A stretch of 64,000 nt of DNA from Bdellovibrionales bacterium (GCA_965262715.1 OZ253553.1:2688001-2752000); one strand, 5' to 3'. Counted from the first letter of the stretch, positions 2,241 through 59,432 are shown. Program-made: numbers and translations. Notes: generated by a model not told the origin, from the letters alone.

Positions 2241-2390
2241 CGATTTCCTTAACATGATGTTAAACAATGAGGGGAGTCTCCTTAGTAAAATGCCTCATAC
2301 TTTCTAGGCATTGCCTTATTTGCCAAACGACGTGAGCCAGTTTGGAGGCAATGCCAGAAAGTCGCCAGAGGCGAGATGCATTTTAGTGAA
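2241..2390 (+). repeat. Structured dispersed repeat family 1, single unit
   Basis: Starts CGATTTCCTTAACAT and ends TTTTAGTGAA. Stems GGCATTGCCT/AGGCAATGCC, CCAAAC/GTTTGG and CGCC-AGA-GGCG. Confidence 0.85.
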
Positions 2391-2456
2391 TTAGTCATTG
2401 ACTTATATTTAAAATTATCATATATAAATATCTTCATGAATAATATGGGAAACATT

Positions 2457-3860
2457 ATGTCTAGAGGTTATTTATTATTATTTTGTGCTTTTATATCCAA
2501 GACTGCAATTGTACATGGAGCATCTGATAACCTTGCAATACCGGAAATGACTGAACTCTCGAAGAGCGATTTAGAAGGAATGACAGCGGCAGGTTTATTT
2601 TGTGTTGATGCTCTTATGAATACAAAGAAAGTTAGATCAAATGAGTACTCAAATGAAACAGAGCAGAGCTTAAAAGATCGGGGGTACAATGAGAGGCTTA
2701 TTGAAGGGCTTGATCACGTGAATGCAAATTTAAGACTGGCTCAGTCTTTAAGAGATAGGTGGCGTGATGAATCCATTGACCTCAATACTTTACATATACC
2801 GGCATTTGCTGATCAAATTGATCTACATGTAAAGTTTATTGAAGGAATTATTAGATCTCAAAGCTCTAATGATAAAGTTGAGAGGTTAGAGTTATTAGAA
2901 GAACTTAAAGCTGAGGCACAGCATCGTAAAAGTTCAGAGAGTGTGACTTATCGATATTTCTTTAGTCTTAACTTACGTCTTTCTATTCTTGCAACTCCTG
3001 CAGGGGAAAGATATAAGAAGGCGGCTTATGAGCCTAGGTTTGATAATTCCGAACATTTTCAAAAATGGATGAGAGATACTAGTGGATTTCGAAAATGGAT
3101 AATCGATGATAGTGAATTAGAATCTGATTATGCGATAATTCAAGGAATAAATAATAGATATGTAGATTTTAATAGTCAAGATCAGGGTGAAGTTCTTGAT
3201 GCTATTCGTAAAGGAGTTGCACGTTTAACACCTTATGAACGTAGTAAAGTTGAAAGATTTTTATATTTGATAAACGTAATGTTTGACGACACTGAGTATG
3301 AGGCTTTTAAATTTGTAAATTTATTACATGATTTTCCAAGAAGGATTATGATACCGACAATATATGATTTAGGTATTATGTCTATAAATAGGACTTATGG
3401 AACAGGTGTGCATCTTATTGGCTTAAGTAAGAAATCATATGGAAGTTACTTTAGTGGAGATTTCAATTATGTATTTTTTCTTAGGAATATAAATGAGAGT
3501 ATAATGATGGATATAGATAATTCACAGATGGTTACACATTTTCAAAGTATGTTAGCAGGTCTTACACCACTCCAAAGGGAAAATGTTGAGATCGCTTATT
3601 TTGGTGCAACCTATCTATCTGAAAGATCGTTAGAAGATTTTCCTATAGACTTTTCACTTGTTGAGTATGAGATTTTAAAAATGTATGGACATAAAGTAAA
3701 TGAGCAGATGCTTGATGAAGGCGAACGTATTTTTATTTATCTTCTTATAAGCTCATGGATAAAAGAAAGAGGTATGGTCAAAACGATTGTATTAGTAAAT
3801 GAGTATCTTGATGAACATCCAGAATTAAAGGAGGAGATTTTAGAGATATTAAATGAATAA
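2457..3860 (+). CDS. Secreted hypothetical protein (signal peptide)
   Basis: Long ORF. The likely start is MSRGYLLLFCAFISKTAIVHG; the 2376 ATG is donated by the repeat end. Confidence 0.7.
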   Translation: MSRGYLLLFCAFISKTAIVHGASDNLAIPEMTELSKSDLEGMTAAGLFCVDALMNTKKVRSNEYSNETEQSLKDRGYNERLIEGLDHVNANLRLAQSLRDRWRDESIDLNTLHIPAFADQIDLHVKFIEGIIRSQSSNDKVERLELLEELKAEAQHRKSSESVTYRYFFSLNLRLSILATPAGERYKKAAYEPRFDNSEHFQKWMRDTSGFRKWIIDDSELESDYAIIQGINNRYVDFNSQDQGEVLDAIRKGVARLTPYERSKVERFLYLINVMFDDTEYEAFKFVNLLHDFPRRIMIPTIYDLGIMSINRTYGTGVHLIGLSKKSYGSYFSGDFNYVFFLRNINESIMMDIDNSQMVTHFQSMLAGLTPLQRENVEIAYFGATYLSERSLEDFPIDFSLVEYEILKMYGHKVNEQMLDEGERIFIYLLISSWIKERGMVKTIVLVNEYLDEHPELKEEILEILNE

Positions 3861-4058
3861 TCCAATATCCAATAATTGATAAAGGTGAGAGGAATTAGAT
3901 AAGAGATTATTTGCTGGTCAAGTTTTTTTGGAAATGAATACTATACAATAATTTTTTCAAATGAAGTGTCGACTTTATTTATAGACATCTTGTTGAACTT
4001 ATTGACTTATAGCAGCTATCATATTTAGATGCTCTCATAAGTAATGAGGAAAAATATT

Positions 4059-4319
4059 ATGTTTAAAGCTTATTTATTATTATTTTGTGGGCTTTTAATA
4101 AGTGCAAAAGTTGTAGCGACTGAACATGAAATTAAAATGGATAACTTAAATCTTTGTGCAACAAAGCCTATAAGAGTTAAAAAAATTGAAAGATATAATC
4201 ATATTATCAAATTGCTTGAAGAGGCTGGTGCAATACATGAGGAAGAAGTTGATGCAGTACATGAAGCAACAGATACTAATACAGTATTCGGCTATTTTAG
4301 GAGCCTGTTTCGACCATAA
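4059..4319 (+). CDS. Small secreted protein, possibly an internally deleted ankyrin-repeat protein
   Basis: Signal peptide MFKAYLLLFCGLLISAK, similar to that of 2457. YNHIIKLLEEAGA resembles a terminal ankyrin helix. Confidence 0.45.
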   Translation: MFKAYLLLFCGLLISAKVVATEHEIKMDNLNLCATKPIRVKKIERYNHIIKLLEEAGAIHEEEVDAVHEATDTNTVFGYFRSLFRP

Positions 4320-4383
4320 AATTTCCTCTTAATTTTTAAAAACAAAATACTTTCAATAGATCAAAAAAGCTAATGCTGTTCAA

Positions 4384-5538
4384 ATGAATTTAAAGAATCT
4401 AGATTTTGAAACAAGAGCTATTTATGCTGACCAACTTCCAGATGAACTCACTGGAGCTGTGATTACTCCTATAACACTTTCTACCACATTTGTTCAAGAC
4501 TCTCCTGGGGAGCATAGAGGTTATGAATACTCACGTAGCGGTAATCCTACACGTATGATCTATGAAAGGCATTTAGCTAATTTAGAGTCAGGAAGCTATG
4601 GTTTTGCCTTTTCATCAGGATCTGCTGCTCTTACAACTCTACTCCATCTTTTTAAAACAGGTGATCATATTATCTCTATGAATAATATTTATAGTGGCTC
4701 AGTTTGTTTAATCAATCAATTTATAAAAAGTCAGGGGATTAAGGTTGACTTTGTAGATCTATCAGATATTCATCAATTTGAAGATGCTATTTGTGAAAAC
4801 ACAAAATGTGTTTGGGTAGAGACTCCGACAAACCCTACATTAAAGCTTATTGATATAGGAAAAATATCTCAAATAGCTAGAAAGAAAAATATCTTAGTAG
4901 CTGTTGATAACACTTTTATGAGCCCTTTTTTTCAAAGGCCACTTTTATTAGGTGCAGATGTCAGTTGTCATTCAACGACTAAATATATTGGTGGCCATAG
5001 TGATGTAGTTGGTGGTTTTATGGCTGTGAAAAATAAGGAATTGGCTGAAAAATTGTACTTTTTACAAAACTCTCTTGGAGCTATTGCATCGCCTTTTGAT
5101 AGCTTTATGTGTTTACGATCTCTTAAAACTCTAGGTATTCGAATGAAAGCGCATGCTTTCAATGCACAGAAGATAGCTCATTTTTTAGAAGATCATGCTA
5201 AGATAGAGAAAGTTATTTATCCTGGATTAAAAAGTCATCCACAACACAGTTTAGCTCAAAAACAGATGTATGGTTTTGGAGGAATGTTGAGTTTTTACCT
5301 TAAAGGAGGACTTAAAGAAGTTAGAACTTTTTTAAGAAAATTACAAATATTTAACTTAGCAGTGAGTTTAGGAGGCACAGAATCTTTGATAGCGCATCCT
5401 GCAATTATGACACATGAGTACCTCTCAGAAAAAAAGCGTCAGAACTTTGAGATCACTGATAATTTTATTCGAGTGAGCGTTGGTATTGAAAACTTCCAAG
5501 ATCTTATTAACGATTTAGATCAAGCTCTCACCTTTTAA
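4384..5538 (+). CDS. Cystathionine gamma-synthase/gamma-lyase (Cys/Met metabolism PLP enzyme)
   Basis: YSRSGNPTR, ETPTNP, DNTF, HSTTKYIGGHSD (PLP lysine), RVSVGIE. Confidence 0.93.
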   Translation: MNLKNLDFETRAIYADQLPDELTGAVITPITLSTTFVQDSPGEHRGYEYSRSGNPTRMIYERHLANLESGSYGFAFSSGSAALTTLLHLFKTGDHIISMNNIYSGSVCLINQFIKSQGIKVDFVDLSDIHQFEDAICENTKCVWVETPTNPTLKLIDIGKISQIARKKNILVAVDNTFMSPFFQRPLLLGADVSCHSTTKYIGGHSDVVGGFMAVKNKELAEKLYFLQNSLGAIASPFDSFMCLRSLKTLGIRMKAHAFNAQKIAHFLEDHAKIEKVIYPGLKSHPQHSLAQKQMYGFGGMLSFYLKGGLKEVRTFLRKLQIFNLAVSLGGTESLIAHPAIMTHEYLSEKKRQNFEITDNFIRVSVGIENFQDLINDLDQALTF

Positions 5539-5797
5539 CATGATGTAAAAAAGCAAAGAATATCTCCCTACTCAAAATGAACAAATTTTCTAGGCAATTA
5601 CCATTTTACTGATGGTGTGAACCATCAGGCTGACTATGGTACATAACAACGATTTCCTTAACATAGTGTTAAGGAATGAGGAAGTCCTCCTTAGTAAAAA
5701 TGCCTCAAGCTTTCTAGGTAGTAAGCTTTTTACGACGACGAGAGTCGTCGAGCTTACTGCCAGAAAGTTGCTAGAAGCAAGAGATATTTTGAGTGAA
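5531..5797 (+). repeat. Structured repeat family 1, composite (partial outer unit plus full inner unit)
   Basis: Hairpins CTGATGG/CCATCAG, TTCCTTAACA-TAG-TGTTAAGGAA, GGTAGTAAGCT/AGCTTACTGCC and CGACGAC-GAGA-GTCGTCG. Its left end supplies the TAA stop of the upstream gene. Confidence 0.85.
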
Positions 5798-5942
5798 AGA
5801 TCGAAATTAATAAGCTTTCTTAAACGTTGAGATATATATGACAATATTTATATGTACGATAATAGAAGCAAAAAGTCATTTTCTTACTATAAAGCTAAAC
5901 CTTAACCTACTGCGAAGATTTGAGTACTTGTTAGAAAATTGG

Positions 5943-6208
5943 TTCCTTAACATGATGTAAAAAGCAAAGACTATCTTCTTACTCAAAAGGAACAAACTTT
6001 CTAGGCAATGACCATTTTACTGATGGTGTGAACCATCAGGCTGACTATGGTAAATAACAACGATTTCCTTAACATAGTGTTAAGGAATGAGGAAGTCCTC
6101 CTTAGTAAAAATGCCTCAAGCTTTCTAGGTAGTAAGCTTTTTACGACGACGAGAGTCGTCGAGCTTACTGCCAGAAAGTTGCTAGAAGCAAGAGGCATTT
6201 TGAGTGAA
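5943..6208 (+). repeat. Structured repeat family 1, composite; near-identical tandem copy of 5531-5797
   Basis: Direct sequence identity at a ~411-bp offset, including about 25 bp of 3' flank. Confidence 0.85.
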
Positions 6209-6520
6209 AGATCGAAATTGATAAGCCTTCTTAGACCTAAAGAGGTTATAGATCTACTTATAAATCAAGAGAATGCTGACATTTTAGGAAGATACATGCT
6301 TCAAGGTACAAATTACTCAAAAGAGGAATTTATAGAGATTGAAAATGAGATTATTAGAAGTAAGGAGGACCAAGTAATGAAAAGCACTTATGATCGATTG
6401 ATTGATGAAGGAATAGAAAAGGGAATGGAAAAGGTGGCTTTGCGGATGTTAGAGCAAAATATGGAACTGAAATTTATTGCCAAAATAACAAATCTTTCAA
6501 TCCAACAACTTAAAAAATAG
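6209..6520 (+). pseudogene. C-terminal fragment of an Rpn/YhgA-like protein, containing an intact small ORF 6377..6520 (RpnS-like)
   Basis: MKSTYDRLIDEGIEKGMEKVALRMLEQNMELKFIAKITNLS is a typical Rpn C-terminus. Strong SD TAAGGAGG at 6361 precedes the in-frame ATG 6377. Confidence 0.75.
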
Positions 6521-6804
6521 ATTCTAAAAAAAGAAAGCTGGGAGCATAGCGGGTTTTTGTTTTGCATTCAGACATGTAAAGGTTATATCTTACTTTAAGC
6601 ATTTCTTAGTATATTCAATATTGATTCAAATTGATACAAGATAAAAATAAAAAAGATTTTTTATTTTGATTTTCAAAAAATACATGTACAATAAAGAACA
6701 TCAAGTCTTGATTTTTTATCATAAGAATTTTCCATTAAAAACTAGTCAAAATGTTTTAAATCCAAAAAAAACTAAAGTACAGTCAACAAAAAGGAATTTA
6801 TTTT

Positions 6805-7348
6805 ATGAGCAGTAATAGTATCTTTGATCAATTCACCCATCAATACCCTGTGACCAAAACTCTAAGGTTTGCCCTCAAGCCCATTGGTAAAACAGAAGAG
6901 AACATAAAGAAAAAAGGGTTACTTAAAAAAGATGAAGATTTATCTAAAAAGTATAAACAGGCCAAAAAAATTATTGATGAATATCATAAGAATTATATAA
7001 ATGAAAAACTTAAAAGCTTTTCTTTTAAAATAGAAGACCTACAAGAATTTTCTGACATATATCATAACCTTAAAGAAAATAAAAATGATGATAAACTGCA
7101 AGAAAATTTTAAAACACAACAAAGCAAATTACGTAAAATTTTAGCAGATCAATTTAAAAATAAAAGATAGTTCTATGCCTCAGAATGCAGATGCCAATGG
7201 AGCTTATCACATTGCTTTAAAGGGTCAGTTGATACTTAAACAATTCTCAGAAAATAAAGATACGAAAAGCTTTAAACTAAATTTAAGTAATAAAGCATGG
7301 TATGAGTTTATCCAAAATAAAAAAAATATATCCCGTTGTAAATACTAA
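6805..7348 (+). pseudogene. cas12a: Cas12a (Cpf1) remnant: N-terminal 121 aa joined out of frame to the last ~60 aa
   Basis: 6805..7170 SIFDQFTHQYPVTKTLRFALKPIGKT...YKQAKKIIDEYHK is the Cas12a N-terminus. 7175..7348 MPQNADANGAYHIALKG...LSNKAWYEFIQN is the Cas12a RuvC-III/C-terminus. Confidence 0.9.
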
Positions 7349-7594
7349 TACTATAGAAAATCGAGATATCAAAACAAAAAGCTCAGACAAAACTCAAGTT
7401 GCATGAAATATAAGCTTTGAATTTTAAAATGATATAACTTTTAAAAAGTATGTATATAACCAAACATATTGTACTTGCTATTTGAATTTACGAAACATGA
7501 AGATAAAGGTTTGGATATCAAAAATTTTGGATAAATCTGTTGATTCTTTAGTTAAAAATTGACATAAAAAAAGACTCTCAGTAAACAAGAAGTT

Positions 7595-7928
7595 ATGAAA
7601 AACGATGAAGTGCTAATTGAGCGTATTCGATCCATTCTTTCAAGGCGGAAGGGATTGTTCTCTGAAAAAAGAATGTTTGGTAGTGTTTGTTTTATGCTCA
7701 ATGGCAATATATGTGTTGGCACTTGGAGGAAAGGATCGCTAGAAACACGATGAGATACTTGCAGAACCACACACCAAGCCTGCTAACATGAGTGGTCGAA
7801 TAGTGAAAGGATGGGTGCTTGTAGATCCAGAGGGTATCGAAGATATGACAGTATGGATCAACAGGGCTATCAAATTCACTAACAGCCTTCCTTCTAAATG
7901 GTCCACTTCAGAACCGTTAAACAAATAA
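7595..7928 (+). pseudogene. TfoX/Sxy N-terminal domain protein, frameshifted
   Basis: ERIRSILS...EKRMFGSVCFMLNGNICVG, then a frame change near 7740 to HDEILAEPHTKP...GRIVKGWVLVDPEG...WINRAIKFTNSLPSK. Confidence 0.7.
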
Positions 7929-8019
7929 CCACAATTAAGAAAGATGACTACAAAACATAAGTTTTTCCTAGAGCAAAGACTTTTTTCAATACATTTGATA
8001 AAATTTGTATACACCATAA

Positions 8020-8048
8020 TGAGGTATAAAAAAGCTGTTTATTCCTCA
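8020..8048. promoter_or_regulatory. Inverted repeat upstream of the second Fic gene (putative operator)
   Basis: TGAGGTATAAA-N7-TTTATTCCTCA, one mismatch. Confidence 0.4.
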
Positions 8049-8062
8049 AAAATAGGCTATAA

Positions 8063-9256
8063 TTGAGTTATAACTTAGAAAAAAGAGATATCTTAGATAA
8101 GGAAATAGACTCAATGATGCCTTTAAAAAAGAAGATATGGAATTGGCAGAAAGATGAGTGGCCAAACTTTATTTACCAATCCAAAGACTTAGAAGATTTA
8201 GAGCAAACATTCTTACACAATTCAGGTGTGCTTTTTGGCATCTTTAAACATTTAAATGATCAAGATCAATTAAAGGTAGAAATCATTAGCCAAGAAGCTT
8301 TAGAAACATCTGAGATTGAAGGGGAATACCTTGATCGAGAAAGCCTGCAATCTTCTATAGCTCGTCATTTTGGATTAAAAATAACTCAAAAGAAAGTTTC
8401 CTCTCCAGAACGTGGAATCTCTGATCTCTTAATAGATCTTTACAAAAGTTATGATAAAGAATTAAGGCATGAAACCTTATGCCGTTGGCATTACAAGTTA
8501 ATGGGTCATCGTAATGATTTAAGAAATATTGGCTGCTATCGGACTGGGAAAGAGGCAATGCAAGTGATCTCTGGTCCTATACATGCTCCTTATGTTCATT
8601 TTGAAGCACCACCTTTTAAAAGAGTCAAAAAAGAAATGGACAGTTTTATCAACTGGTTCAATATAACAGCTCCAAAAGGCAAATCATCTTTATCTACACT
8701 TGCTCGCTGTGGAATAGCTCATCTTTATTTTGAATGTATTCATCCTTTTGAAGATGGCAATGGGCGAATTGGTCGAGCTTTATCTGAAAAAGTCTTAGCA
8801 CAGAGTTTAGGCAAACCAACTTTAATTGCATTAGCAACTATCCTAAATCAAGATAAAAAAGCTTATTACAAGGCCTTAGAGCAAGCTAGTCAAAAAAATG
8901 AAATCACTGATTGGCTTTGTTATTTTGCAAAAAAGATATTACAAGCACTTTGTTACACACAGTCCCTTATGGAGTTTCTCATTGCAAAAGCAAAGCTATT
9001 TGAACATTTGCAGAGTTGCCTCAATCCAAGACAGGAAAAATGTTTATTGAAAATGTTTCAAGCAGGGCCAAATGGATTTACTGGAGGTTTGAGTGCAGAA
9101 AATTATATCAGAATAACTAAAGCCACACGTGCCACAGCAACCCGCGACTTAAATGATCTTGTTGTCAAAGGTGCTCTCAATAAAACAGGAGAACGTAAAT
9201 CAACACGTTATACCCTTAATATAAAAGCAACTGGGCCTACAAAGTCCACAAGCTAA
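8063..9256 (+). CDS. Fic family protein (DUF4172 N-terminus, C-terminal HTH); start may be ~8114
   Basis: WNWQKDEWPNF, TSEIEGE, HPFEDGNGRIGR, ATATRDLNDLV. Confidence 0.92.
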   Translation: MSYNLEKRDILDKEIDSMMPLKKKIWNWQKDEWPNFIYQSKDLEDLEQTFLHNSGVLFGIFKHLNDQDQLKVEIISQEALETSEIEGEYLDRESLQSSIARHFGLKITQKKVSSPERGISDLLIDLYKSYDKELRHETLCRWHYKLMGHRNDLRNIGCYRTGKEAMQVISGPIHAPYVHFEAPPFKRVKKEMDSFINWFNITAPKGKSSLSTLARCGIAHLYFECIHPFEDGNGRIGRALSEKVLAQSLGKPTLIALATILNQDKKAYYKALEQASQKNEITDWLCYFAKKILQALCYTQSLMEFLIAKAKLFEHLQSCLNPRQEKCLLKMFQAGPNGFTGGLSAENYIRITKATRATATRDLNDLVVKGALNKTGERKSTRYTLNIKATGPTKSTS

Positions 9257-9279
9257 TCATTAAAAGATAAATACCTTCT

Positions 9280-10749
9280 TTACATCATTAAAAAAAACTT
9301 TATTGGTATTTTTACAATGCCTTGCTTTTTGAGATGCTCTATATCGGCACTCTCAGATATGATGACTGCATAGTCCCCAGATATTTTTTTTAAGGTTTTA
9401 ATTGACTGCTTACAATCTTTTTTCCCCATTCCAGTCTCCATAACAATCTGTTTTTTGTTATCAATTTGAACAATAAAATCTGCTCCGCCTTTTTGAGGAT
9501 CATATCTTATATTTCCTATACCCTTGGCAGTAAATTCACAGGTTAAATGCATTGCAACGATATCTTCTAAGTATTTGCCAAAATAGTTTAAAAATGTTGA
9601 ATGTTTTCCTGTTATTCCTAAAAATGCAGCTCTGATAGTAGGAGATGCAAATAAATATTTTGATGGTTTTGTGATTTTAGATGGATTAGAACCATAAGGC
9701 GCAACTTTAATGAGCAGTTCTGTCTGTTCTATAGCATCAAGAAGCTGTTGAATAGTTATTTTAGAAAATTTCATACGATCCGCTAATTTATGAACACTCA
9801 ATGTATCACTTGAAGATATAAGAAATAATAACGTATTGATGGCATTGAGAGTCGTTTGATTAAAAGATTTGAGGTGAGTTATGTCTTCTAAAATGATTTT
9901 ATTTATAACCTCTTGTATGGATCTGAATACATGAGAAGTATTTGATATTTCAAGAGTTGATGGTATAGTGCCTTTTTGTAAATAGTTTCTGATTTCTATT
10001 TTTGGTTTTTCTGGTATCTTGACCCAATATTTCTGCACTTCAGAGTTTAATTTTTTTAATTTTGTATACACCTCTTGACTGTTTTTAGAATAATAAACAG
10101 CTTCTTTGATTTTTTCTTTAAGCTTTGGGTTGGGGTGAATGTTTCTTCCAAGCATTTGATACTCTGTAAAACTGAGTGGATATAATTTTTCAGTAATAAC
10201 TCTTCGGCTAATATCTACATTGGCTTGTAAAGTCAAAGCTGAAGAGCCAGTACAACAGATAAAGGCTTTTTTAGTAGAATCATATATGGTTTTTAAAGTA
10301 AGGCCCCATTGAGGATCATATTGAGCTTCATCAATAAACAAAAAAACTTGATACTCTAATGTTTCAAAAGATTCTCCTAATATCTCTTTATAAGATTCAA
10401 TGACATCTAATAAGCTAAAGCCTCGTATTTTGAGATCATCAAGAGATATGCACAAAATGCGTTTGTTATCATCTACTTTTTCATAAATATGCAAAAATAA
10501 CTGTGACAAAACAGTTGTCTTACCAATACCCCTTAATCCAGGTATCAAAAACCATCTTTTTTCAGACTTTAATAAATAAAAATCATCAAAATACTTTTTA
10601 AGTGTAGGATAAATATGCCTCTTAGGGTAGCTTGTCTTATCCTGATCTGCTCTAACAACACTGTTTTTCAACCGATTGTATCCTATACTTAACTGTTGTT
10701 GCACATACTCTGTAACTTGACTTTTCATTGCACTCTCCCTCAAATCCAT
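9280..10749 (-). CDS. AAA+ ATPase (AAA_14/DUF4143-type) with C-terminal PD-(D/E)XK-like domain
   Basis: Walker A GLRGIGKTT, Walker B LFIDEAQ, TGSS, YPLSFTEY, C-terminal ADFIV...METG. Confidence 0.85.
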   Translation of the reverse strand: MDLRESAMKSQVTEYVQQQLSIGYNRLKNSVVRADQDKTSYPKRHIYPTLKKYFDDFYLLKSEKRWFLIPGLRGIGKTTVLSQLFLHIYEKVDDNKRILCISLDDLKIRGFSLLDVIESYKEILGESFETLEYQVFLFIDEAQYDPQWGLTLKTIYDSTKKAFICCTGSSALTLQANVDISRRVITEKLYPLSFTEYQMLGRNIHPNPKLKEKIKEAVYYSKNSQEVYTKLKKLNSEVQKYWVKIPEKPKIEIRNYLQKGTIPSTLEISNTSHVFRSIQEVINKIILEDITHLKSFNQTTLNAINTLLFLISSSDTLSVHKLADRMKFSKITIQQLLDAIEQTELLIKVAPYGSNPSKITKPSKYLFASPTIRAAFLGITGKHSTFLNYFGKYLEDIVAMHLTCEFTAKGIGNIRYDPQKGGADFIVQIDNKKQIVMETGMGKKDCKQSIKTLKKISGDYAVIISESADIEHLKKQGIVKIPIKFFLMM

Positions 10750-10774
10750 AGCTTATACATTTAAAATGTACCAG

Positions 10775-10868
10775 TTTTAGTATATTGTAATATATTAAAA
10801 ATATCAACTTTTAATATACTAAGATATACTAAAACGATTATTCTTTAGTATATTCTAGTATACTAAAA
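10775..10868. promoter_or_regulatory. Three tandem 26-bp palindromes (TTTTAGTATA-N6-TATACTAAAA) at exact 34-bp period
   Basis: Copies start at 10775, 10809 and 10843, directly upstream of the ATPase start. Confidence 0.7.
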
Positions 10869-13041: not shown

Positions 13042-13106
13042 AGCGATTAATTTTTATTTTGCTTAAGCCGACATATTTTTATGTCTATTTAAGTGAAGGG
13101 AAGATT

Positions 13107-13301: not shown

Positions 13302-13361
13302 TACTTGGCACTTTAGCTCAAATGATTCTAACTTATTTGTAATGTAGTCAAGTTAGAGGAC

Positions 13362-13916: not shown

Positions 13917-13992
13917 AACAAAGTTAATTAAAGGAAAAAAGTGTATAAGGCAAGGGCTTGCTTGTTTTGTAAAATCAGTTTTTAATAATTCA

Positions 13993-14490: not shown

Positions 14491-14515
14491 GGTAGGGCTG
14501 TGAAAAAGGCAGGAA

Positions 14516-14675
14516 CGATTTCCTTAACATAATATAAAAAGAATGGGGGTATCTGTGTTACTAAAAATGAACGGATTTTTGAGACAGTCAGCATTTTCTG
14601 AAGACTTTGAGTCTTCAGGCCGACTGTCCAAAAACAGCCAGAGGCTTGCCTCGAGAGGCTGGTTCATTTTTAGTG
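14516..14675 (+). repeat. Structured repeat family 1, single unit inserted in the 5' end of the OMP gene
   Basis: CGATTTCCTTAACAT left end. Closing stem ACTAAAAATGAAC/GTTCATTTTTAGT; GACAGTCAGC/GCCGACTGTC; CTGAAGAC/GTCTTCAG. Confidence 0.85.
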
Positions 14676-15418
14676 TATATATACTGGTGATGTTTTGTTT
14701 TACAGGGCATATTTTTGCGCAAGATGATGTTCATTTGACAGATAAAGAGCTTGCAAGAGAGTCTGTCTTGCCAGTTATTGAGAATCCTCAATCAGTAAGG
14801 AACCGTAATGTGTCTAAGGCAGGTTCATTAAGTCTTTATCCTTTAGCTGGTGCTGTGGTCAATAATCCATTTTTCTTTAACTTAGCTTTTGGAGGAACTA
14901 TTGGCTATCATTTCAATGAATTTCATAGTATTAATTTACTTGGTGCTTATATGTATAGCACTTCAACAAAGTATGTGGATGATATTGTTAATAATGATGA
15001 GCTTACAAATGATGGAGGGGGTATTATTAGAAGTCATTTAAGGGAGTTTAAAAACTTTCCTAAAGTTAATTTGTTAGCACTTCTGATGTATGAGTTTTCT
15101 CCTTTGTATGGTAAGATGAGTTTTTCAAAAAATATGGTTTTAAATACTGACCTCGTACTTTCAGCAGGAGGTGGAACAATTATTTTTGGTGGTGGAAATT
15201 ACTTGCCTGCTTTTACTCTAGGGATAGGACAGAGGTTTTATTTTGGAAAGAACTGGGGGATTCGATTTGATCTTATGGGATTGATGTATCCTGGTCCTAA
15301 TTACACTTCTCTAAAAGGACCACCAATACTTGATAATAATGAATATACTTTAGAGAACTTTAATCGTCAGTTCACTTTTCACTTCTTATGTTCTGTAGGT
15401 CTTGTTGTTTTATTTTAA
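14543..15418 (+). CDS. Outer-membrane beta-barrel protein of the gliding cluster (GltA/GltB-like); N-terminus derived from the repeat
   Basis: SVRNR, GYHFNE, FSPLYGKMS, C-terminal aromatic beta strand (GLVVLF). First gene of the agl/glt cluster. Confidence 0.7.
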   Translation: MGVSVLLKMNGFLRQSAFSEDFESSGRLSKNSQRLASRGWFIFSVYILVMFCFTGHIFAQDDVHLTDKELARESVLPVIENPQSVRNRNVSKAGSLSLYPLAGAVVNNPFFFNLAFGGTIGYHFNEFHSINLLGAYMYSTSTKYVDDIVNNDELTNDGGGIIRSHLREFKNFPKVNLLALLMYEFSPLYGKMSFSKNMVLNTDLVLSAGGGTIIFGGGNYLPAFTLGIGQRFYFGKNWGIRFDLMGLMYPGPNYTSLKGPPILDNNEYTLENFNRQFTFHFLCSVGLVVLF

Positions 15419-28355: not shown

Positions 28356-28520
28356 AATTTCCATAACATGATGTTAAATAATGAGAACATCCTTGTTTTG
28401 TTTTATTCCGGCAATCCGGCAATCCGGCAATCCGGCAATCCGGCAATCCGGCAATCCGGCAATCCGGCAATCCGGCAATCCGGCAATCAGTATCTGGTAA
28501 CAGTTTGCTGGACTGCTAGA
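28356..28520 (+). repeat. Degenerate family-1 repeat containing a (TCCGGCAA)10 microsatellite at 28407-28486
   Basis: Left end AATTTCCATAACATGATGTTAAA, ten perfect 8-mers, then TCAG as in the GGCAATCAG of other copies. Confidence 0.8.
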
Positions 28521-37133: not shown

Positions 37134-37462
37134 TCACTAAAAATGAACTGGCCTCTGTTTCACTAAAATACCTCTCGCCTCTGGCGACTTTTTGGCATTG
37201 TCCCCAAACGAGCTTACGCTGTTTGGCAAATAGGACAATGCCTAAAAAGCTTGAGGTATTTTAGTAGGAAGAATCTCTTTATTCTCTTATATCATGTTAG
37301 GGAAAATATTGTTGTTTACAAACCAACATGAAGGCTCACACCTTCAGTAAAATGCTGATTGCCTCATTTATCTACATGGGCAATCCTCAAAAAGGCTTGC
37401 CATTCGTTTATTTTTAGTAGGGAGGCTCTCTCTTCGTTTCTTTACACCATGTTAAGGAAATT
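37134..37462 (-). repeat. Structured repeat family 1, nested composite
   Basis: Outer stem ACTAAAAATAAAC/GTTCATTTTTAGT encloses an inner unit with ACTAAAATACCTC/GAGGTATTTTAGT. Confidence 0.85.
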
Positions 37463-37478
37463 TTCCTTCATCCTGCTT

Positions 37479-37720
37479 CTACTCAAAATGAATAGAAGAC
37501 AAGCCTCTCGAGGCTAGCCTTTTTGAGAATTGTCCATGAAATAAATCTAGGTACTGATCCGATGTCAAGAATAAGGTTTCCCTAACATTGTGTTAAGAAG
37601 CAAGAATATCCTCCCTACTAAAATGCATCAGGCTTTCTAGGTAGTCAGCTATTTGCTGACGATGTCAATCGTCAGGCTGACTACCAGAAAGTCGCCAGAG
37701 GCGAGATGCATTTTAGTGAA
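37479..37720 (+). repeat. Structured repeat family 1, partial outer unit plus full unit (37576-37720), back-to-back with the previous copy
   Basis: ACTAAAATGCATC/GATGCATTTTAGT, GGTAGTCAGC/GCTGACTACC, CTGACGAT/ATCGTCAG, CGCC-AGA-GGCG. Confidence 0.85.
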
Positions 37721-37827
37721 AATAATTGAGTCAAAATTTTCTTATAAAGTAAAATAAAAGTCTCTTTTATTTTTGTTGCTATTCACTGATTTTTGTAGAT
37801 AATCAAGTCAATTGAAGAGAGTGAAAA

Positions 37828-38784: not shown

Positions 38785-38831
38785 AGAGATTGTTTTTTAG
38801 AAAAACAAGGAAAAAATCTTTGAAAGCAATG

Positions 38832-38914
38832 ATTTGATATTTTAAGTCAAAGCCTCGAAGTCCTCGGGCTATTGCCCTGCGGAAGATCTCGTCTTTGGCT
38901 TAAAATATCAAATC
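38832..38914. repeat. Structured repeat family 3 hairpin, copy 1
   Basis: GATTTGATATTTTAAG/CTTAAAATATCAAATC stem. The reverse-strand core TCTTCCGCAGGGC-AATA-GCCCGAGGAC is shared with 62960-63036. Confidence 0.65.
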
Positions 38915-38972
38915 TTTTGTTAGCTATAAAGATTTGGTGTGATTTGTAGGGAGAGGAGATAATAAGAGGAAA

Positions 38973-39064
38973 GTTTCCCTAACATGGTGTAAAATAATAA
39001 AGAGTATCTTTTTTTACTCAAAATGAACAGAGGCTCGCCTTGAGAGGCCAGACTATTTTTAGGG
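38973..39064 (+). repeat. Structured repeat family 1, internally deleted short copy
   Basis: GTTTCCCTAACATGGTGTAAA...ACTCAAAATGAAC-AGAGGCTCGCCTTGAGAGGCCA-GACTATTTTTAGGG. Confidence 0.7.
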
Positions 39065-39083
39065 ATACAGAAACGAGGTTATT

Positions 39084-44520: not shown

Positions 44521-44850
44521 TTCCCTAAAAATAGACCAGCCTCTGTTTCACTAAAAATGCCTCTTGCCTCTGGCAACTTTCTGGCATTGCCCCCAAACGG
44601 CCCTGCGCCGTTTGGCAAATAAGGCAATGCCTAGAAAGCCTGAAGCATTTTTACTAGAAGGATATCCTCGTTTTTTAACACGATGTTAGGGAAACTGTTA
44701 TTATTTACCAGTCAGCATGAAGACTTACGTCTTCAAGAAAATGCTGATTGCCTCATTTATTTATATGGGCAATCTTCAAAGAAGCTTGCCATCTGTCTAT
44801 TTTTAGGAAGGAGACTCTTTTCGTTTCTTTACGAAATGTTAAGGAAATCG
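44521..44850 (-). repeat. Structured repeat family 1, nested composite (plus an isolated right-end fragment at ~44860-44893)
   Basis: Colinear with 37134-37462. Outer stem covaries to CCTAAAAATAGAC/GTCTATTTTTAGG. Confidence 0.85.
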
Positions 44851-54405: not shown

Positions 54406-55775
54406 CGAATTACCTCAGAATATGTGTTACCGAGAGTTGGTAATGTAATTTTGATTTTCGGATTGGTTGCCTCACAACCCCTCTCTTATTTATCATTAAA
54501 AATAACCAACAATTTTAATGAATTTAGCAAACAAGGGAGGGTATCATGAGTTACCATACTATCTTAGAATATATCAATGAATTAGCCAAGTACTACTTTG
54601 AAGCTCAGAGAGTTAAAAAGACTCAAATGTTGGATCATGCTACTGAAGTCACCGGACTTCACAGAAAAACTATCATCAGACAACTTAAAATCTCAAAGAG
54701 GAGTCAATTAGCCAATAATAAGAAAAGATGCGGCGCAAAGCAAAAATACCCTACAGAGTTACTTTTACCTCATATTGAATATCTGTGGAAACAAATGGAT
54801 CGGATATCTGCTAGAAGAATGAAAGCTGCTTTGAAAGATTGGCTGCCTTACTACAATGAAAATAATGTGAATGATCAAGTTAGAAGTCTTTTACAAAAGA
54901 TGAGTGTCTCTACCCTAGATCGCTTCTTAAATCTTCTTAGAAAGCGATACAGAAGCTCAAAAAAAGGAATTTCTTCCACATCTCCAGCTACTTACATGAA
55001 AAATAAAGTTCCTATCAATACTTTAGACTCCAGAGTCACTCGACCCGGATACACTCAAGCAGACACTGTAGCTCATTGTGGAGATAGGCTTATTGGTGAA
55101 TTTATGAACTCTATTACTATCACTGACATCTATTCTACATGGACTGAAAATAGAGCTTTATTCACTAAGAAAGCTTTAGAGGTAAGACGCTGTTTTAGTG
55201 ATATTCAAAGGCACTTGCCATTTAAACTTATTGCTATTAATACAGATTCAGGCAGTGAATTTCTTAATAAACCGGTCTTCAATCAATTCAAAAATAATAA
55301 AGTTATCTTTACACGTTCTAGGCCTTATAAGAAGAATGATAACTGCTATGTAGAACAGAAAAACTATACTCATGTCAGAGAGCTTTTTCACTATTATAGG
55401 ATTGAGAATAAGGAACTTAAATCAATAATGAATGACATTTATATCAATTGTTGGAATCCTTATCAAAATTACTTCATGCCTTCTTTTAAGTTAAAAAAGA
55501 AAACTCGAATCGGAGCTAAAATTAAAAAAGAATACGATGAACCAATGACTCCTTATAAAAGATTAATAACATCTTCTCATATATCCGAAAAGCAAAAGGA
55601 AGCTCTCATACAGAAGAAGAAAAAACTCAACCCATTTAAATTAGTTAAAGCTAGAGAAAAAAAACTATCTGAATTCTTTAAACTACTCAACTTATATAAT
55701 AAACAAAGGAAAAATAATGAATAACTTAACTCTTATACAAAAACTCTTGGTAACAATTTATTCTGAGGCAACACG
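54406..55775 (+). mobile_element. Insertion sequence, 1370 bp, imperfect ~30-bp terminal IRs, 4-bp target duplication TTCC
   Basis: Ends CGAATTACCTCAGAAT... and ...ATTCTGAGGCAACACG. TTCC at 54402-54405 and 55776-55779. Confidence 0.88.
54546..55724 (+). CDS. DDE (rve-type) transposase, ISNCY-like
   Basis: QADTVAHCG, TDSGSEFLN, FTRSRPYKKNDNCYVEQKN. Confidence 0.88.
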   Translation: MSYHTILEYINELAKYYFEAQRVKKTQMLDHATEVTGLHRKTIIRQLKISKRSQLANNKKRCGAKQKYPTELLLPHIEYLWKQMDRISARRMKAALKDWLPYYNENNVNDQVRSLLQKMSVSTLDRFLNLLRKRYRSSKKGISSTSPATYMKNKVPINTLDSRVTRPGYTQADTVAHCGDRLIGEFMNSITITDIYSTWTENRALFTKKALEVRRCFSDIQRHLPFKLIAINTDSGSEFLNKPVFNQFKNNKVIFTRSRPYKKNDNCYVEQKNYTHVRELFHYYRIENKELKSIMNDIYINCWNPYQNYFMPSFKLKKKTRIGAKIKKEYDEPMTPYKRLITSSHISEKQKEALIQKKKKLNPFKLVKAREKKLSEFFKLLNLYNKQRKNNE

Positions 55776-56619
55776 TTCCTAAATCATTTAAGTTTAATAA
55801 TCTATACTTATAATTTAAAACATTCTCACCGAAAGCCTTTTTAAGCTCTAAAGACTTAAAGTTCAAGTAATCATGGAAGCTCAAAGGTAAATTCCATCCA
55901 CTTTTACCAGAATAAACCAACACAGGGATCACTATGGATGGAGCTTTACGTTTTCCACTCTTAACATCTTTACTGTCTTTCTCATAAATACTTGCTTGAT
56001 ACTTAAGAAGCTGTAAAAAAATATCCGAGTCATTATAGGATTTATGCTCAAAAAGAAAAATAATTTCTACAATCTCATCTGAATCTTTCATCTTCACTGA
56101 AAAAATCACATCAGCTCTCTGCTCCCTAAACACCTGATCTACAAAAACAGTCACTTTTGACTGTAGAGTCTTCCAATCAAAAAGATCAAATTCTTCAGGA
56201 GTTAAAACCAAACGAAACAAGTCTAAAACATACCGCTCCTTGCTATAAATTTCATAAAACAAATGATTGAAAATATGAAAAACTTCACGTTTTAACTCCT
56301 GTTTGTTTTTTGGAAGCTTTACCTTTTTATACTTAGATCTGACCATCACAAAACCTCTTAACTAGCTATGAACCTTATTAAACATAAAAACCTTAATCAA
56401 ATGAAAACTCCTGCTTGCATCATAATTTAATTTCAAAAATATAAAAAAATACTCATCAAAACCTCTCTAGATAAATCCTTCTGCAACAAGACCTCTGAAA
56501 AGTACAGTTCTTCGAGTCCATATTTCATTAGAAATAAAATGGTAAGGTATTAGTTTTTTAAGATTTTGTTTTGCTTTTTCTAAAAAACCAGTATTCTCTC
56601 TAAAACTCTCATATAAAAT

Positions 56620-57510
56620 CTATCGTTTAGATTTTTCTTGAAGCTTACAAATTTCTTCCTTTGAAAAACCAGTAACTTTAGATATTTTTTCTGCACTCAT
56701 ACCAGTGTTTAGAAGCTTTAATATAACTTCTGCTATCCCTTCCTGCCGTCCTTTTTCTATTCCTTCCTGTTGCCCTTCTCTTCGAGCTAGGTTTTCTGCG
56801 CTAATTCTATCTCTCTCTCTTTTATCAAGTGCATCTAAATATTCTTCTAAAATTTCATCTTGGGATAAGTTCCAAAACTTCTTTCCTGTTTTTGTTGTAT
56901 TTTTTCCTTTCATAGCTTCTCTAAGGTCTTCTAATCTTTTAAGTCCTTCTAATGCGTCCTTAGTAAATTTTGTAACATCAAGAATAATCTGAGTATCGAC
57001 TCCATTTTTTAGCATATTTAAAGCAACATTCTCACGTTCTTTATGTAGTCCTTTTATAACTCCTTCTTCAAATCCTTCTGTGTGAATGAGTTTTTCTCTA
57101 TTGACTCTATTCTTCTTTTTCTTTTCAAGGATATGTAGGTATTCACTTTCAATCTCTTTTTGAGAAATATCCCGGTAGTTCTCTACTTCCCTTGTTATGT
57201 CAATATCTTGACTCTTAAAATTCTTATACAAAATCTGCTGTTTAGCTTTTTCCTTAAATTCATAAATTTTTTCTTTTGAAAAACCAGTGACTTCAGATAT
57301 CCTTTCTATTTCTACACCAGAATCTAGAAACTTTAATATGGCTTCCTCTACTCCTTCCTGTTGTCCTTTCTTAAATCCATCCTCGACACCTACTTTATAA
57401 ACATGTTCTTCGCTACTAACTCTATCTCTTTCCATCTTGTCATAGGCATACAAGTATTCCTCTTCACCTTCTTTTTGGGAAAAATTCCAAAGTTTCTCTG
57501 TTTCTGCCAT
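56620..57510 (-). CDS. Protein made of three tandem Rpn C-terminal modules
   Basis: Three (W)xxSQ...RDR...EG..EG...VI/AL.(F/M)L..G...I..VT.F units. SD GAGGAG. Confidence 0.75.
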   Translation of the reverse strand: MAETEKLWNFSQKEGEEEYLYAYDKMERDRVSSEEHVYKVGVEDGFKKGQQEGVEEAILKFLDSGVEIERISEVTGFSKEKIYEFKEKAKQQILYKNFKSQDIDITREVENYRDISQKEIESEYLHILEKKKKNRVNREKLIHTEGFEEGVIKGLHKERENVALNMLKNGVDTQIILDVTKFTKDALEGLKRLEDLREAMKGKNTTKTGKKFWNLSQDEILEEYLDALDKRERDRISAENLARREGQQEGIEKGRQEGIAEVILKLLNTGMSAEKISKVTGFSKEEICKLQEKSKR

Positions 57511-57803
57511 ATCGTCTCCTCAACCCTTAAAGTCCTCATATAAAGTTTATTACTTAGACTTATCTTGAAATTTACAAATTTCTTCCTTTGAAAAACCAGT
57601 AACTTTAGACACTTCTTCTCCACTCATTACAACGCCTTAAAAGTTTCAATATAACTTCCTTTATTCTTTCTTGTTGTCTTTCTTTTTTACCTTTCTTAAT
57701 TCCTTTTTCTATCCATTCTTATCATCTTTCCAGATGTTCTTCTCTGTGAGCTAGATTGTCTGCACTAACCCTCTCTCTTTTAGAGATCCTATCTCTTTTG
57801 GAT

Positions 57804-58406
57804 TTATAGATATTTTTTAAGATGTTCTAATTTTTTAAGTCTTTCTAACTCGTCCTTAGTAAATTTTGTAACATCAAGAATAACCGGGGTATCAACTCCA
57901 ATCTTTACCATATTTAAAGTAATGTTCTCACGTTCTTTTTGTAGTCCTTTTATAAATCCTTCTTCAAATCCTTCTTTGCGAATGAGTTTCTCTCTATTGG
58001 CCCTATTCTTCTTTTTCCTTTCGAGAACATACAAGTGTTCACCTTCATCCTCTTCTTGAGAAACATCCCAATAGTTCTCTACTTCCTTTGTTATATCAAT
58101 GTTTTGATTCTTAAAATTCTTATACAAAATCTGTTGTTTAGTTTTTTCATGAAACTTATGAATTTTTTCTTTTGTAAAACCAGTAATTTCAGATACTTTT
58201 TCTATCTCCTCATCAGCATCTAAAAATTTTAATATAACTCCCTCCATTCCTTCTTGTCGTCCTTGCTCAAATCCATCCTCAACACCTTCTTTATAAACAA
58301 ATTCTTCTCTAGTTATTCTATCTCTTTCCATCTTGTCGTAGACAGATAAGTTTTTTTCTTCACCTTCTTTTTGAGAAAAGTCCCAAAAGTTTTCTGCCTT
58401 TGCCAT
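57804..58406 (-). CDS. Protein made of two tandem Rpn C-terminal modules
   Basis: Paralog of the first two modules of 56620..57510 at an 896-bp offset. SD GAGGAG. Confidence 0.75.
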   Translation of the reverse strand: MAKAENFWDFSQKEGEEKNLSVYDKMERDRITREEFVYKEGVEDGFEQGRQEGMEGVILKFLDADEEIEKVSEITGFTKEKIHKFHEKTKQQILYKNFKNQNIDITKEVENYWDVSQEEDEGEHLYVLERKKKNRANREKLIRKEGFEEGFIKGLQKERENITLNMVKIGVDTPVILDVTKFTKDELERLKKLEHLKKYL

Positions 58407-58445
58407 ATCGTCTCCTCAATCCTTAAGGTTCTTATATAAATTCTA

Positions 58446-59432
58446 TTATTTAGATCTTTCTTGAAACTTACAAATTTCTTCCCTTGAAAAACCGGTAACT
58501 TTAGACACTTCCTCTGCACTCATACCAGTATTTAGAAACTTTAATATAACTTCCGCTATCCCTTCCTGCCGTCCTTTTTCTATCCCTTTTTCTATTCCCT
58601 CCTGTTGTCCTTCTCTGCGGGCTAGGTTTTCTGCGCTAATTCTATCTCTTTCTCTTTTATCAAACGCATCTATATATTCTTGTAAAGCCTCATCTTGGGA
58701 TAAGTTCAAGAGATGTTTTACTGCTTTTGCCATATCTTCTCCTTTATTTTCCAAACTCTTATATTCAGTATCATTCATTTTATATGAATTCTTTAATAAA
58801 TAACACCATGACTCTCTTATATCATACAATTGCTTTACATTTTTATCAAATTTCCCTAACTCTGCTTTTTTCACTAAAAATGAACCAGCCGTCGAGGTGA
58901 GCCTCTCGAGGTGAGCCTCTGGCTGTTTTTGGGCAATGACCCCGACGGCTAATGCCCTCGGCAAATAGGTCATTGCCTCAAAAACCTGTTCATTTTTAGT
59001 AAGAAGATACTCTTCATTTTTTAATAAGATGCTAAGGGAATATTAAAGCCTACATGCATATACCAATGCTCTATCTGTAAAATAAGGTTTTGATACTGTT
59101 TGCATCTCTACATTTACAATCTCTGTTTCCTGGGTACCTGATTGTGTGTTCCTTTTTAAATGCATTCTCAAGTCGAGAACAAATCTTCTACCAGATTCTT
59201 CACCTTTTATAACAGAAGGAGTATCAGGATGAAGATCAGGATCTAAAACGTCTACTTTTATAACTTCTGAATGTTTTGGAAGTGGCAAAAAATGTGTGAG
59301 TAGTGATTTTAAAGCTTCTTCATTGCCTTTAAAATAGGTTTTAAAAGCTGCGTCATTTGTTAATTTTAAAAAATGAGACTTTTTTAAAAATTCTTCAATA
59401 TCTAATAACTGATGTTTATTACTTGAACCCAT
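58446..59432 (-). pseudogene. PD-(D/E)XK nuclease family (Rpn) gene disrupted by a family-1 repeat; intact internal small ORF 58446..58733
   Basis: NDAAFK, VLDL, NVEMQ, RAL.Y then TAA at 59043; ELGKF and WCYLLK resume in the same frame. AAGGAG precedes ATG 58733. Confidence 0.85.
58870..59043 (-). repeat. Structured repeat family 1, single unit inside the Rpn gene
   Basis: ACTAAAAATGAAC/GTTCATTTTTAGT, GGCAATGACC/GGTCATTGCC, TATTTG bulge, CCGA/TCGG. Confidence 0.85.

Follow-up and report, generated by a model that had tools for sequence, protein, structure and literature searches.

The 64,000-nucleotide (nt) stretch of a Bdellovibrionales genome analysed here (GCA_965262715.1 OZ253553.1:2688001-2752000; hereafter the window) contained copies of a dispersed, non-coding repeat of about 150 bp with sharp, asymmetric ends and a branched fold. 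On balance, the family was best explained as a selfish DNA repeat that is kept by its fold and not by its letters, and that is likely copied as DNA without a transposase of a standard type. A first-pass annotation of the window had proposed a non-autonomous dispersed element, and this was borne out: the reference genome that holds the window (G000; 2.94 Mb, single contig) had 436 matches (231 on the + and 205 on the - strand), nested copies gave back an intact unit once the inner copy was removed, and one copy had recently entered a gene.

Anatomy and ends of the unit

The consensus of the unit was (C/A)RW-TTTCCYTAACAT ... CATTTT(T)AGKGAAACAG, with (C/A)RWTTTCCYTAACAT as the 5' end and CATTTT(T)AGKGAAACAG as the 3' end. 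Two small hairpins stood at the 5' side, the first of 6 bp (TTAACA-NNN-TGTTAA) and the second weak with an ATC loop. A 13-bp closing stem enclosed a long bulged arm that itself ended in a hairpin, and a short GCC-AGA-GGC hairpin completed a three-way junction 3' of the two small hairpins. Each of the stem pairs quoted in the first-pass annotation was read in the sequence as given there. Type A copies had the short GCC-AGA-GGC hairpin; in type B copies the last hairpin was longer by one to three AGAGGCnnnCCTCG units.

Across 251 aligned full copies, information content was at background no more than 3 nt beyond either end. Position -1 was A in 213 of them, and the 12 nt 5' of the unit were purine-rich and C-poor. 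The earlier description of the element as lacking terminal inverted repeats was correct in that the ends were asymmetric, and was qualified by a weak likeness between TTTC-CTTAACATGA at the 5' end and TTTCACTAAAAATGA, which is the 3' end reverse-complemented (local score 8; shuffle P = 0.028).

Copy number and distribution among genomes

The motif GATTTCCYTAACAT, with at most two mismatches, matched the window 11 times (2.1 expected; 0 of 100 shuffles reached 11), and the first-hairpin motif TTAACANNNTGTTAA matched 9 times (0.8 expected; no shuffle equalled the count). An nhmmer profile made from nine window copies gave 13 matches in the window. Throughout G000 its matches spanned 58,876 bases (2.0% of the genome), formed about 241 separate clusters distributed evenly round the chromosome, and included 285 whole-profile copies; 30 copies were 5'-truncated and 86 were 3'-truncated. 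A covariance model made from seven window copies recovered 8 full units there; over the window plus 400 kb of other stretches its matches numbered 164. Left-end motifs outside the profile matches were short stubs. Tandem arrays of the repeat were numerous, with periods of 158, 230, 236, 257 and 431 nt. Overlap with open reading frames (ORF) of at least 110 amino acids (aa) was below 20% for 421 of the 436 matches and above 80% for 9, using a crude ORF set (longest ATG ORFs) that covered 74% of G000.

Three of 31 related genomes were positive with the covariance model: G000, its congener G001, and G004, which belongs to the same family but a different genus. Profile matches numbered 208 in the first 400 kb of G001, and G004 had 12 copies. 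No covariance-model match was found in the other 28, including G003, a congener of G004. Copies per related genome ranged from 0 to roughly 1300, the upper figure being extrapolated from 400 kb. The family thus makes up 2% of one genome and, by the same extrapolation, several per cent of its sister genome. In a pattern scan that covered 20 of the 64 parts of a set of 185,579 species genomes, the record of G001 alone had many matches per locus; elsewhere matches were single. A mobile island as the site of the G004 copies was considered and rejected, their neighbours being housekeeping genes, among them recG, dcd, nfu and an HhH-GPD glycosylase.

Conservation of the fold

Among 123 distinct copies aligned with the covariance model, standard pairs made up 93.3% of pair cells; shuffles gave 81.6%, and sliding the partners by 1-3 columns gave 37-49%. 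Changes on both sides of a pair occurred in 31 of 46 pairs (763 cells vs. 261 +/- 18 in shuffles; 0 of 500 shuffles as high), which agrees with the earlier proposal that pairing is kept while sequence changes; the alignment was fitted to the structure of the model and these counts are therefore biased towards that structure. The junction was predicted independently by RNAalifold on a MAFFT alignment of seven copies, with 18 of 40 pairs compensatory. Folded as DNA, the sense strand of five window copies gave z scores of -7.2 to -10.3, equalled by no shuffle, and folds of the antisense strand gave z = -7.9 and -11.5.

Between nearest-neighbour copies (43 pairs; divergence at most 12%), the difference per column was 0.037 at paired and 0.072 at unpaired positions. 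Changes at paired sites comprised 59 single pair-breaking changes, 30 Watson-Crick/G-U changes and 23 double changes that exchanged one Watson-Crick pair for a different one, the last compared with fewer than one estimated from the rates. Part of the covariation excess is exchange of whole hairpins as cassettes and not paired point changes. Four G001 paralogs were 100% identical on either side of the arm hairpin, with the hairpin itself wholly different and its pairing kept, and the conserved blocks that flank each helix could act as short homologies for such swaps. Strong covariation in multi-copy DNA families can thus reflect selection among copies plus cassette exchange, and not only functional RNA.

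The first-pass annotation had offered a structured non-coding RNA family as an alternative to a mobile element. A host-serving RNA gene or cis-element (small RNA, mRNA stabiliser or terminator), multiplied through its usefulness, would account for the strong covariation and for the evolution of paired columns at half the unpaired rate, which was seen even in close copies and could reflect selection in place for a host function. With RNA parameters, the sense strand was about 3 kcal/mol more stable in 169 of 231 copies, and two G-T wobble pairs were fixed on that strand. Units were weakly co-oriented with flanking genes (68 vs. 44 regions, P = 0.03), and the GC hairpin plus T-run of one copy scored as terminator-like.

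A functional RNA gene family was nonetheless unlikely, because both strands folded alike, G-U and A-C pairs were about equally frequent, and no promoter, fixed distance to genes or Rfam match was found. Outside the two fixed wobbles, G-U occurred 132 times and A-C 110 times, whereas functional RNA families usually tolerate G-U far better than A-C. A -10-like hexamer lay 16-18 nt after the invariant TTAACA (sigma-70 check) in only 10 of 179 copies; promoter and terminator sites in window positions 1-16000 were no more numerous than in shuffles, and units had no preferred distance to neighbouring starts or stops. Among eight public runs, none was listed as an RNA run with this DNA. The Rfam search that the first-pass annotation had called for gave no match at the gathering thresholds in the 64-kb window, and at E up to 10 the best hit in 37100-37760 scored 20.7 bits against a threshold of 57. 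The range of copy number among relatives, the nesting of units in each other and the disruption of a gene also made the host-serving reading improbable.

Units and nests in the window

All ten loci named in the first-pass annotation, on both strands, contained the repeat. Of these, 28356 was a 5' stub with only the first 45 nt of the unit, 38973 an internally deleted unit and 37479 a rearranged partial module. The copies and the features joined to them were, in window coordinates:

2238..2396, + strand: full unit, type A (covariance model 155.5 bits; DNA fold z = -7.2)
5535..5635, + strand: left half of an outer unit (profile 9-109), followed by the inner unit (nhmmer; junction read)
5647..5803, + strand: full inner unit, the 3' end of which also pairs with the 5' closing strand of the outer unit (covariance model 150.3 bits)
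5943..6046, + strand: outer unit, left half only, which duplicates the 5535 locus at a spacing of 411 nt (nhmmer; direct repeat D10, 95% identity)
6058..6214, + strand: full inner unit (covariance model 154 bits)
14513..14683, + strand: full unit, type B, with a lengthened AGAGGC-containing hairpin (covariance model 119.1 bits)
28356..28404, + strand: 5' stub, the two first hairpins only, running into a (TCCGGCAA)n array (motif with 2 mismatches; repeat D7)
37134..37157, - strand: nest, right tail of the outer unit (CAGAGGCCAGTTCATTTTTAGTGA) (sequence; joined outer flanks align to intact units with a gap of at most 1 nt)
37153..37311, - strand: nest, full inner unit (covariance model 159.8 bits)
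37328..37461, - strand: nest, left part of the outer unit (profile 3-102) (nhmmer)
37463..37574, + strand: rearranged partial module with the closing 5' strand, GC hairpin and 5' strand of the arm in altered order (sequence)
37571..37726, + strand: full unit, type A, the best-scoring copy (covariance model 166.2 bits; DNA fold z = -10.3)
38790..38972, + strand: module P, a second repeat family of about 190 nt (78 blastn matches in the genome, about 40 of them above 150 nt)
38973..39066, + strand: internally deleted unit with the 5' hairpins, GC hairpin and closing 3' strand, without the long arm (nhmmer 38973-39028; sequence)
44521..44546, - strand: nest, right tail of the outer unit (sequence; ungapped 85-88% alignment to intact units)
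44541..44700, - strand: nest, full inner unit (covariance model 151.4 bits)
44708..44849, - strand: nest, left part of the outer unit (profile 2-111) (nhmmer)
58864..59046, - strand: full unit, type B, with extra AGAGGCTCACCTCG repeats, replacing 184 nt of a PDDEXK_2 nuclease gene (covariance model 145 bits; paralog alignment)
59043..59432, - strand: truncated N-terminal ORF of 129 aa, Rpn-like PD-(D/E)XK nuclease (PF12784; profile positions 2-93)

Nested units had been claimed at two loci. Two complete nests were found (37134-37462 and 44521-44849), and two further loci (5531-5803 and 5943-6214) had the left half of an outer unit plus an inner unit. Without its inner unit, the 44547 nest aligned to intact units without gaps at 85-88%, and the 37160 nest aligned at 75-80% with a 1-nt gap. 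At about 28 loci of G000 a split unit enclosed a complete one: its left part was followed by a 12-nt linker and the complete unit, and its right tail came last. Break points of the G000 nests fell at profile positions 109-111 in 21 of 43 cases; because these nests share the conserved 12-nt linker ATAAAYAACAAC, the clustering suggests one old nest that was itself propagated as a unit, and not a hot spot hit repeatedly. Break points of the nests in the first 400 kb of G001 were scattered from profile position 54 to 129. The partial module at 37463 and the unit that follows it formed a composite of about 320 nt, which recurred at six other places of G000 with 82-89% identity.

Three side observations concern neighbours of the units. 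The octamer TCCGGCAA formed a perfect tandem array of about 10 copies at 28391-28502, after the 5' stub. Degenerate NNGGCAAN octamer runs preceded several other units and occurred also in the ORF at G000:1519729-1521378 and in split nuclease genes of G001; these runs may be a separate small repeat family. Module P, which often lay directly 5' of the 150-nt unit, had a long imperfect palindrome (TTAAGTCAAAGCCTCGAAG...CTTTGGCTTAA) and a purine run at its end.

Insertion sites

The empty-site comparison that had been suggested was made on paralogous sites: for several units that lie in multi-copy sequence, uninterrupted paralogous copies existed, and no target duplication was seen. The cleanest case was a unit within module P at TAGAAA^A^ACAAGG, an intact module being that at 38790-38972 of the window. 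The insert spanned TGATTTCC to GTGATACAG, with one target A missing, and 1-3 nt of target DNA were lost at the paralogous sites. An A-rich 5' 'leader', which some paralog comparisons had included in the unit, was rejected: near-identical pairs diverged at the TTTCC end, and the site in module P already had the A-run. Target-site duplication was sought at all offsets for k = 2-8 and none was found (best 24 of 131 vs. 14.6 expected).

The unit at 58864-59046 lay within a PF12784 gene. Its flanks were identical at 387 of 389 and 256 of 265 positions to an intact paralog just beyond the window (L223; G000:2753912-2754868). The 129-aa nuclease ORF stopped exactly at the 5' end of the unit, and the remainder of the gene ran from about 58863 down to about 58600. 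This insertion is recent and destroys the gene. Between the shared anchors there were 184 nt of element in the window and 184 nt of coding sequence in the paralog. The disrupted gene also had another copy at 2779 kb, with the same event and one 14-nt repeat fewer; because that copy is 14 nt shorter, the equality of the two lengths may be chance, and we know of no mechanism that predicts replacement by an equal length.

Near-identical pairs of units (92-95%) were found in unrelated contexts, with similarity lost exactly at the ends given above; one such pair was 95% identical. Recent dispersal of this kind was rare, and most recent growth consisted of tandem arrays and segmental copies, since unrelated flanks on both sides were seen in only 14 of 346 full-length pairs with at least 92% identity. 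These pairs, the many tandem arrays, the recurrence of composites with conserved linkers and the conversion tract of 100% identity across divergent paralogs would all fit a repeat that was never mobile, or is so no longer, and that owes its spread only to a few old insertions, multiplied by gene conversion and by duplication in tandem or in segments. Such passive spread seems quite improbable as the whole account, given the even placement of about 241 clusters round the chromosome, the unit inside a gene whose flank is 99.5% identical to an intact paralog, the clean junctions where units entered another repeat family and each other, and the 95% identical pair in unrelated contexts.

Two further sources of empty sites gave none. 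Logan contigs of four runs broke at every repeat, none bridging a unit, and the joints there linked different repeat copies; synteny between G003 and G004 aligned only a stretch of 70% identity, too diverged for the purpose. The first-pass annotation had also asked for a longer copy enclosing a gene. None was found in G000 or in the first 400 kb of G001, where pairs of left and right ends 250-8000 nt apart were all nests or arrays. Separately, an IS30-family copy (1338 bp; 15 full copies) lay inside the first hairpin of a unit at G000:C1:399667-401010, with a 3-bp GTA duplication read by eye; such an insertion is one route to solo 5' stubs.

Search for a mobilising enzyme

The earlier statement that no mobilising enzyme can be assigned from the window still holds, with the addition that the window contains the truncated Rpn-like nuclease gene abutting one unit. 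Of the intermediates proposed there, single-stranded DNA and RNA, both were unlikely by the routes that follow.

PF01797 (Y1_Tnp) matched once in G000, three times in G002 and not at all in G001, G003 or G004. If a Y1 HUH transposase (RAYT/TnpA) moved the family in single-stranded DNA form, as a REP/REPIN-like or IS200/IS605-derived element, a hairpin-rich intergenic repeat without target duplication would be expected, as found, and G000 does have one Y1_Tnp gene. That gene (G000:1839505-1839864) was of an ordinary IS200 type with unrelated end hairpins of its own, and its nearest unit was about 1.8 kb away. G001 and G004 carried the repeat without any Y1_Tnp gene, and G002 carried three such genes yet no repeat. 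Orientation of units was unbiased between replication arms (58+/50- vs. 65+/68-, P = 0.52, with origin and terminus inferred from a noisy GC skew), and there was no fixed 4-5-nt target. Movement by this route is very unlikely.

RVT_1 matched three times in G000 and not in G001, the genome richest in the repeat, or in G004 with its 12 copies. The G000 reverse transcriptases were an intact group II intron reverse transcriptase/maturase of 465 aa, a truncated copy of it and a 590-aa enzyme. The two intron loci were at G000:1927350-1931009 (L033) and 1878784-1882104 (L035), and the 590-aa enzyme (L034) was beside a tRNA-like stretch. A SINE-like retro-element, in which a transcript of the unit is reverse-transcribed and inserted, could draw on these three genes and would explain the fixed 3' end and the A-rich tract of variable length at the 5' flank. 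It is highly improbable, given the genomes that had the repeat and no RVT_1, the smaller number of 5'-truncated (30) than of 3'-truncated copies (86), and the presence of the A-run in the target and not in the insert at the cleanest empty site.

Transposases of the IS110 (DEDD) and IS91 (Y2) types were not found in G000, the Y2 model matching no control genome either, and the sole TnpB match in G000 was a TNB-like zinc ribbon within a 1343-aa ORF. Tyrosine recombinases were absent from G004. The insertion sequence (IS) genes of G000 comprised 22 copies of IS30, 20 and 9 of two IS4-like kinds, 14 of IS5, 11 of IS256 and about 10 of IS3. The ends of these resident elements were unlike those of the unit, and only 5 of 56 full IS copies abutted a unit. 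Transposase_31 (PF04754) was rejected as a partner: 16 copies occurred in the repeat-free G003, and its median distance to units in G000 was 4.9 kb, compared with 4.25 kb for random genes. One Transposase_31 (Rpn/YhgA-like) match (G000:2743786-2744262) lay inside the ORF at window 55726-56349 (-).

A dedicated transposase or recombinase encoded elsewhere in the genome and outside the families searched, which reads the fold, excises or copies the unit at its exact ends and inserts it after an A, is rather improbable. It would explain the sharp termini of the 251 aligned copies and of near-identical pairs with unrelated flanks, the A at position -1 in 213 of 251, and the clustering of 21 of 43 G000 nest breaks at profile 109-111. 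No candidate emerged, with Y1, Y2, IS110, TnpB and reverse transcriptase absent where needed and tyrosine recombinases missing in G004. Loss of target DNA varied from 1-3 nt to 184 nt, unlike the action of a precise recombinase; nest breaks in G001 were scattered over profile 54 to 129, and the conserved 12-nt linker of G000 suggests one old nest copied and not repeated hits at a hot spot.

Proposed spread of the repeat and the Rpn-like nucleases

For the selfish repeat copied as DNA, the following course is proposed. The fold, which is present on either DNA strand, would be read by copying machinery or by a structure-specific nuclease, so that only lineages that fold would leave descendants. 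New copies would arise by break-associated copying-in of a template-switch kind, together with gene conversion and with duplication on a local scale. That origin is the one to which the junctions point, and the sharp ends point to some recognition of ends. The least certain step would be a PF12784 nuclease as helper.

PF12784 (Rpn-like PD-(D/E)XK) had 5 matches in G000, 14 in G001, 1 in G004 and none in G003 or G002; it was present in 7 of 31 relatives, namely in each of the 3 with the repeat and in 4 of the 28 without it. A unit began within 120 nt of the stop in 12 of the 14 PF12784 ORFs of G001, compared with 28 of 259 background ORFs (first 400 kb), three of the 14 being near-identical duplicates, which leaves fewer independent cases. 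In four G001 genes the unit stood between the nuclease ORF and a Shine-Dalgarno sequence plus ATG that opened a C-terminal tail ORF, a layout that recalls the separately translated RpnS tails of Rpn proteins as they appear in passages of PMC10400941. According to the relevant part of PMC5350276, RpnA is a nonspecific endonuclease, and cut ends can prime a polymerase, with joining via primer-template switching. Joining of that kind after nonspecific cutting would fit insertion without duplication and with target loss. Passages of PMC10400941 present Rpn proteins as toxin-antitoxin phage defence. No repeat partner of Rpn proteins is described in those parts of PMC5350276 and PMC10400941, and their link to the present repeat is one of correlation and does not extend to the intact genes of G000 and G004.

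The Rpn-like PF12784 family was accordingly kept as a tentative and rather improbable candidate for the helper. Somewhat more doubtful still is the further proposal that Rpn-like nucleases have in this repeat their first natural 'client', with the DNA cut by the nuclease and the folded unit copied into the break via primer-template switching. If true, it would imply spread without a transposase and without duplication, able to overwrite target DNA, and so a new class of bacterial mobile element; it would also give the 'putative transposase' label of this nuclease family the biological role that it lacks.

Several points weigh against the selfish-repeat reading or its helper step. The greater stability of the sense strand as RNA, the wobble pairs fixed on it and the slow paired columns could reflect a host function, and the rarity of recent dispersal would fit passive spread. 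For the mobilising step no enzyme, intermediate or polymorphic insertion was observed, and sharp ends conserved in hundreds of copies fit a dedicated end-recognising enzyme better than untargeted repair of breaks. As to the helper, a section heading of PMC10400941 has it that Rpn genes do not encode conventional transposases. None of the intact PF12784 genes of G000 (0 of 3) and G004 (0 of 1) had a unit within about 2 kb, and four relatives had PF12784 and no repeat. In G022, a genome of another family, 13 aligned PF12784 loci (of 14 matches) formed an IS-like unit with no such repeat behind it. The genomes compared are close kin, so that the co-occurrence of PF12784 and the repeat amounts to about two independent contrasts.

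The G022 loci (L238-L250) had a layout of their own. Upstream of the PF12784 gene lay about 170 nt of conserved sequence that included a TCCGGATTAAATGTCCGAATACCG motif; similarity stopped at the stop codon, and tail repeats of a GxxxG type varied in number.

Comparison with known repeats

Small folded repeats are common in bacteria, and the mechanism of spread is known for few of them (REP with RAYT; MITEs, or miniature inverted-repeat transposable elements, with their parent IS). The present repeat belongs in kind with REP/BIME, BOX, Rickettsia palindromic and Correia-type elements, and differs from each family tested in the features that define it. The likeness to REP/BIME and to Rickettsia palindromic elements drawn in the first-pass annotation stands for the kind of repeat, and does not extend to the defining traits of REP/RAYT or of the Rickettsia elements.

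Like REP/REPIN-RAYT systems, the subject of PMC3116915, the family comprises hundreds of short, hairpin-forming, intergenic and non-autonomous repeats in a narrow lineage, without target duplication and seemingly recognised by structure. Unlike them, it lacks a Y1 (RAYT) gene in two of the three repeat-bearing genomes, the sole G000 Y1 gene is not flanked by units, and its unit forms one three-way junction, asymmetric and 150 nt long, in place of an inverted doublet of 20-40-nt palindromes. BOX elements of Streptococcus pneumoniae, which are modular (boxA-boxB-boxC), strongly folding intergenic repeats of about 100-200 nt with internal modules that vary in number and a debated mobiliser, are similar in these respects. 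The present repeat probably differs from BOX in having no sequence relation, a three-way junction with covarying arms, mutual nesting and a far higher share of the genome in G001.

IS200/IS605 PATEs and TnpB omega-RNA ends have no terminal inverted repeats and no target duplication, and have asymmetric ends, subterminal hairpins and a structured 3' part, all of which is also true of the repeat. It differs from PATEs in that TnpA is missing in G001 and G004 and TnpB was not found, the hairpins at the two ends do not resemble each other, a constraint is seen at position -1 alone in place of a strict tetra- or pentanucleotide target, and there is no lagging-strand orientation bias. Rickettsia palindromic elements share with the repeat a length of 100-150 nt, foldability, a reduced or host-associated low-GC bacterium and no known transposase. 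They are known to enter protein genes in frame, whereas 421 of 436 matches of the repeat were intergenic and its one gene insertion was destructive. With MITEs derived from DDE insertion sequences (Correia/NEMIS, RUP), which are reviewed in PMC3184786, the repeat has in common that it is small, does not code for protein and occurs in many copies, and its ends show a weak inverted likeness. The repeat lacks their fixed-length target-site duplication, and its ends are asymmetric and matched none of the resident IS30, IS4, IS5, IS256 and IS3 elements.

The lineage is a clean place to seek a different way of moving structured DNA, and Rpn-like nucleases, the natural DNA transactions of which are still debated, are one testable candidate.

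Other features of the window and genome

A 121-aa ORF at window 6805-7170 (+), just 3' of the two composite repeat loci, had a Cas12a REC1 domain (PF18501, E = 3.9e-10) and looks like a fragment of a Cas12a gene. The 1343-aa ORF with the zinc ribbon, which was Cas12f1-like (G000:C1:2590983-2594114; L002), may be an intact type V effector. Diverged direct repeats of 300-900 nt (D6, D8, D9, D16, D17 and D19) filled 56600-58770, adjacent to the ORF with the Transposase_31 match, and have the look of a gene family duplicated in tandem on the - strand. A 717-aa ORF at 48758-50911 (-) overlapped 12-14 repeats of 153-159 nt (47148-49510). A 963-aa ORF at 22817-25708 (+), without a Pfam match, contained ten tandem repeats of 63 nt (21 aa) at 23155-24021. 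The window also encoded a BglII-like restriction endonuclease (PF09195) that is paired with an N6/N4 DNA methylase (PF01555) at 30226-31790 (-), two Fic-domain proteins (659-1894 and 8063-9256) and an RCC1-repeat protein (35329-37125).

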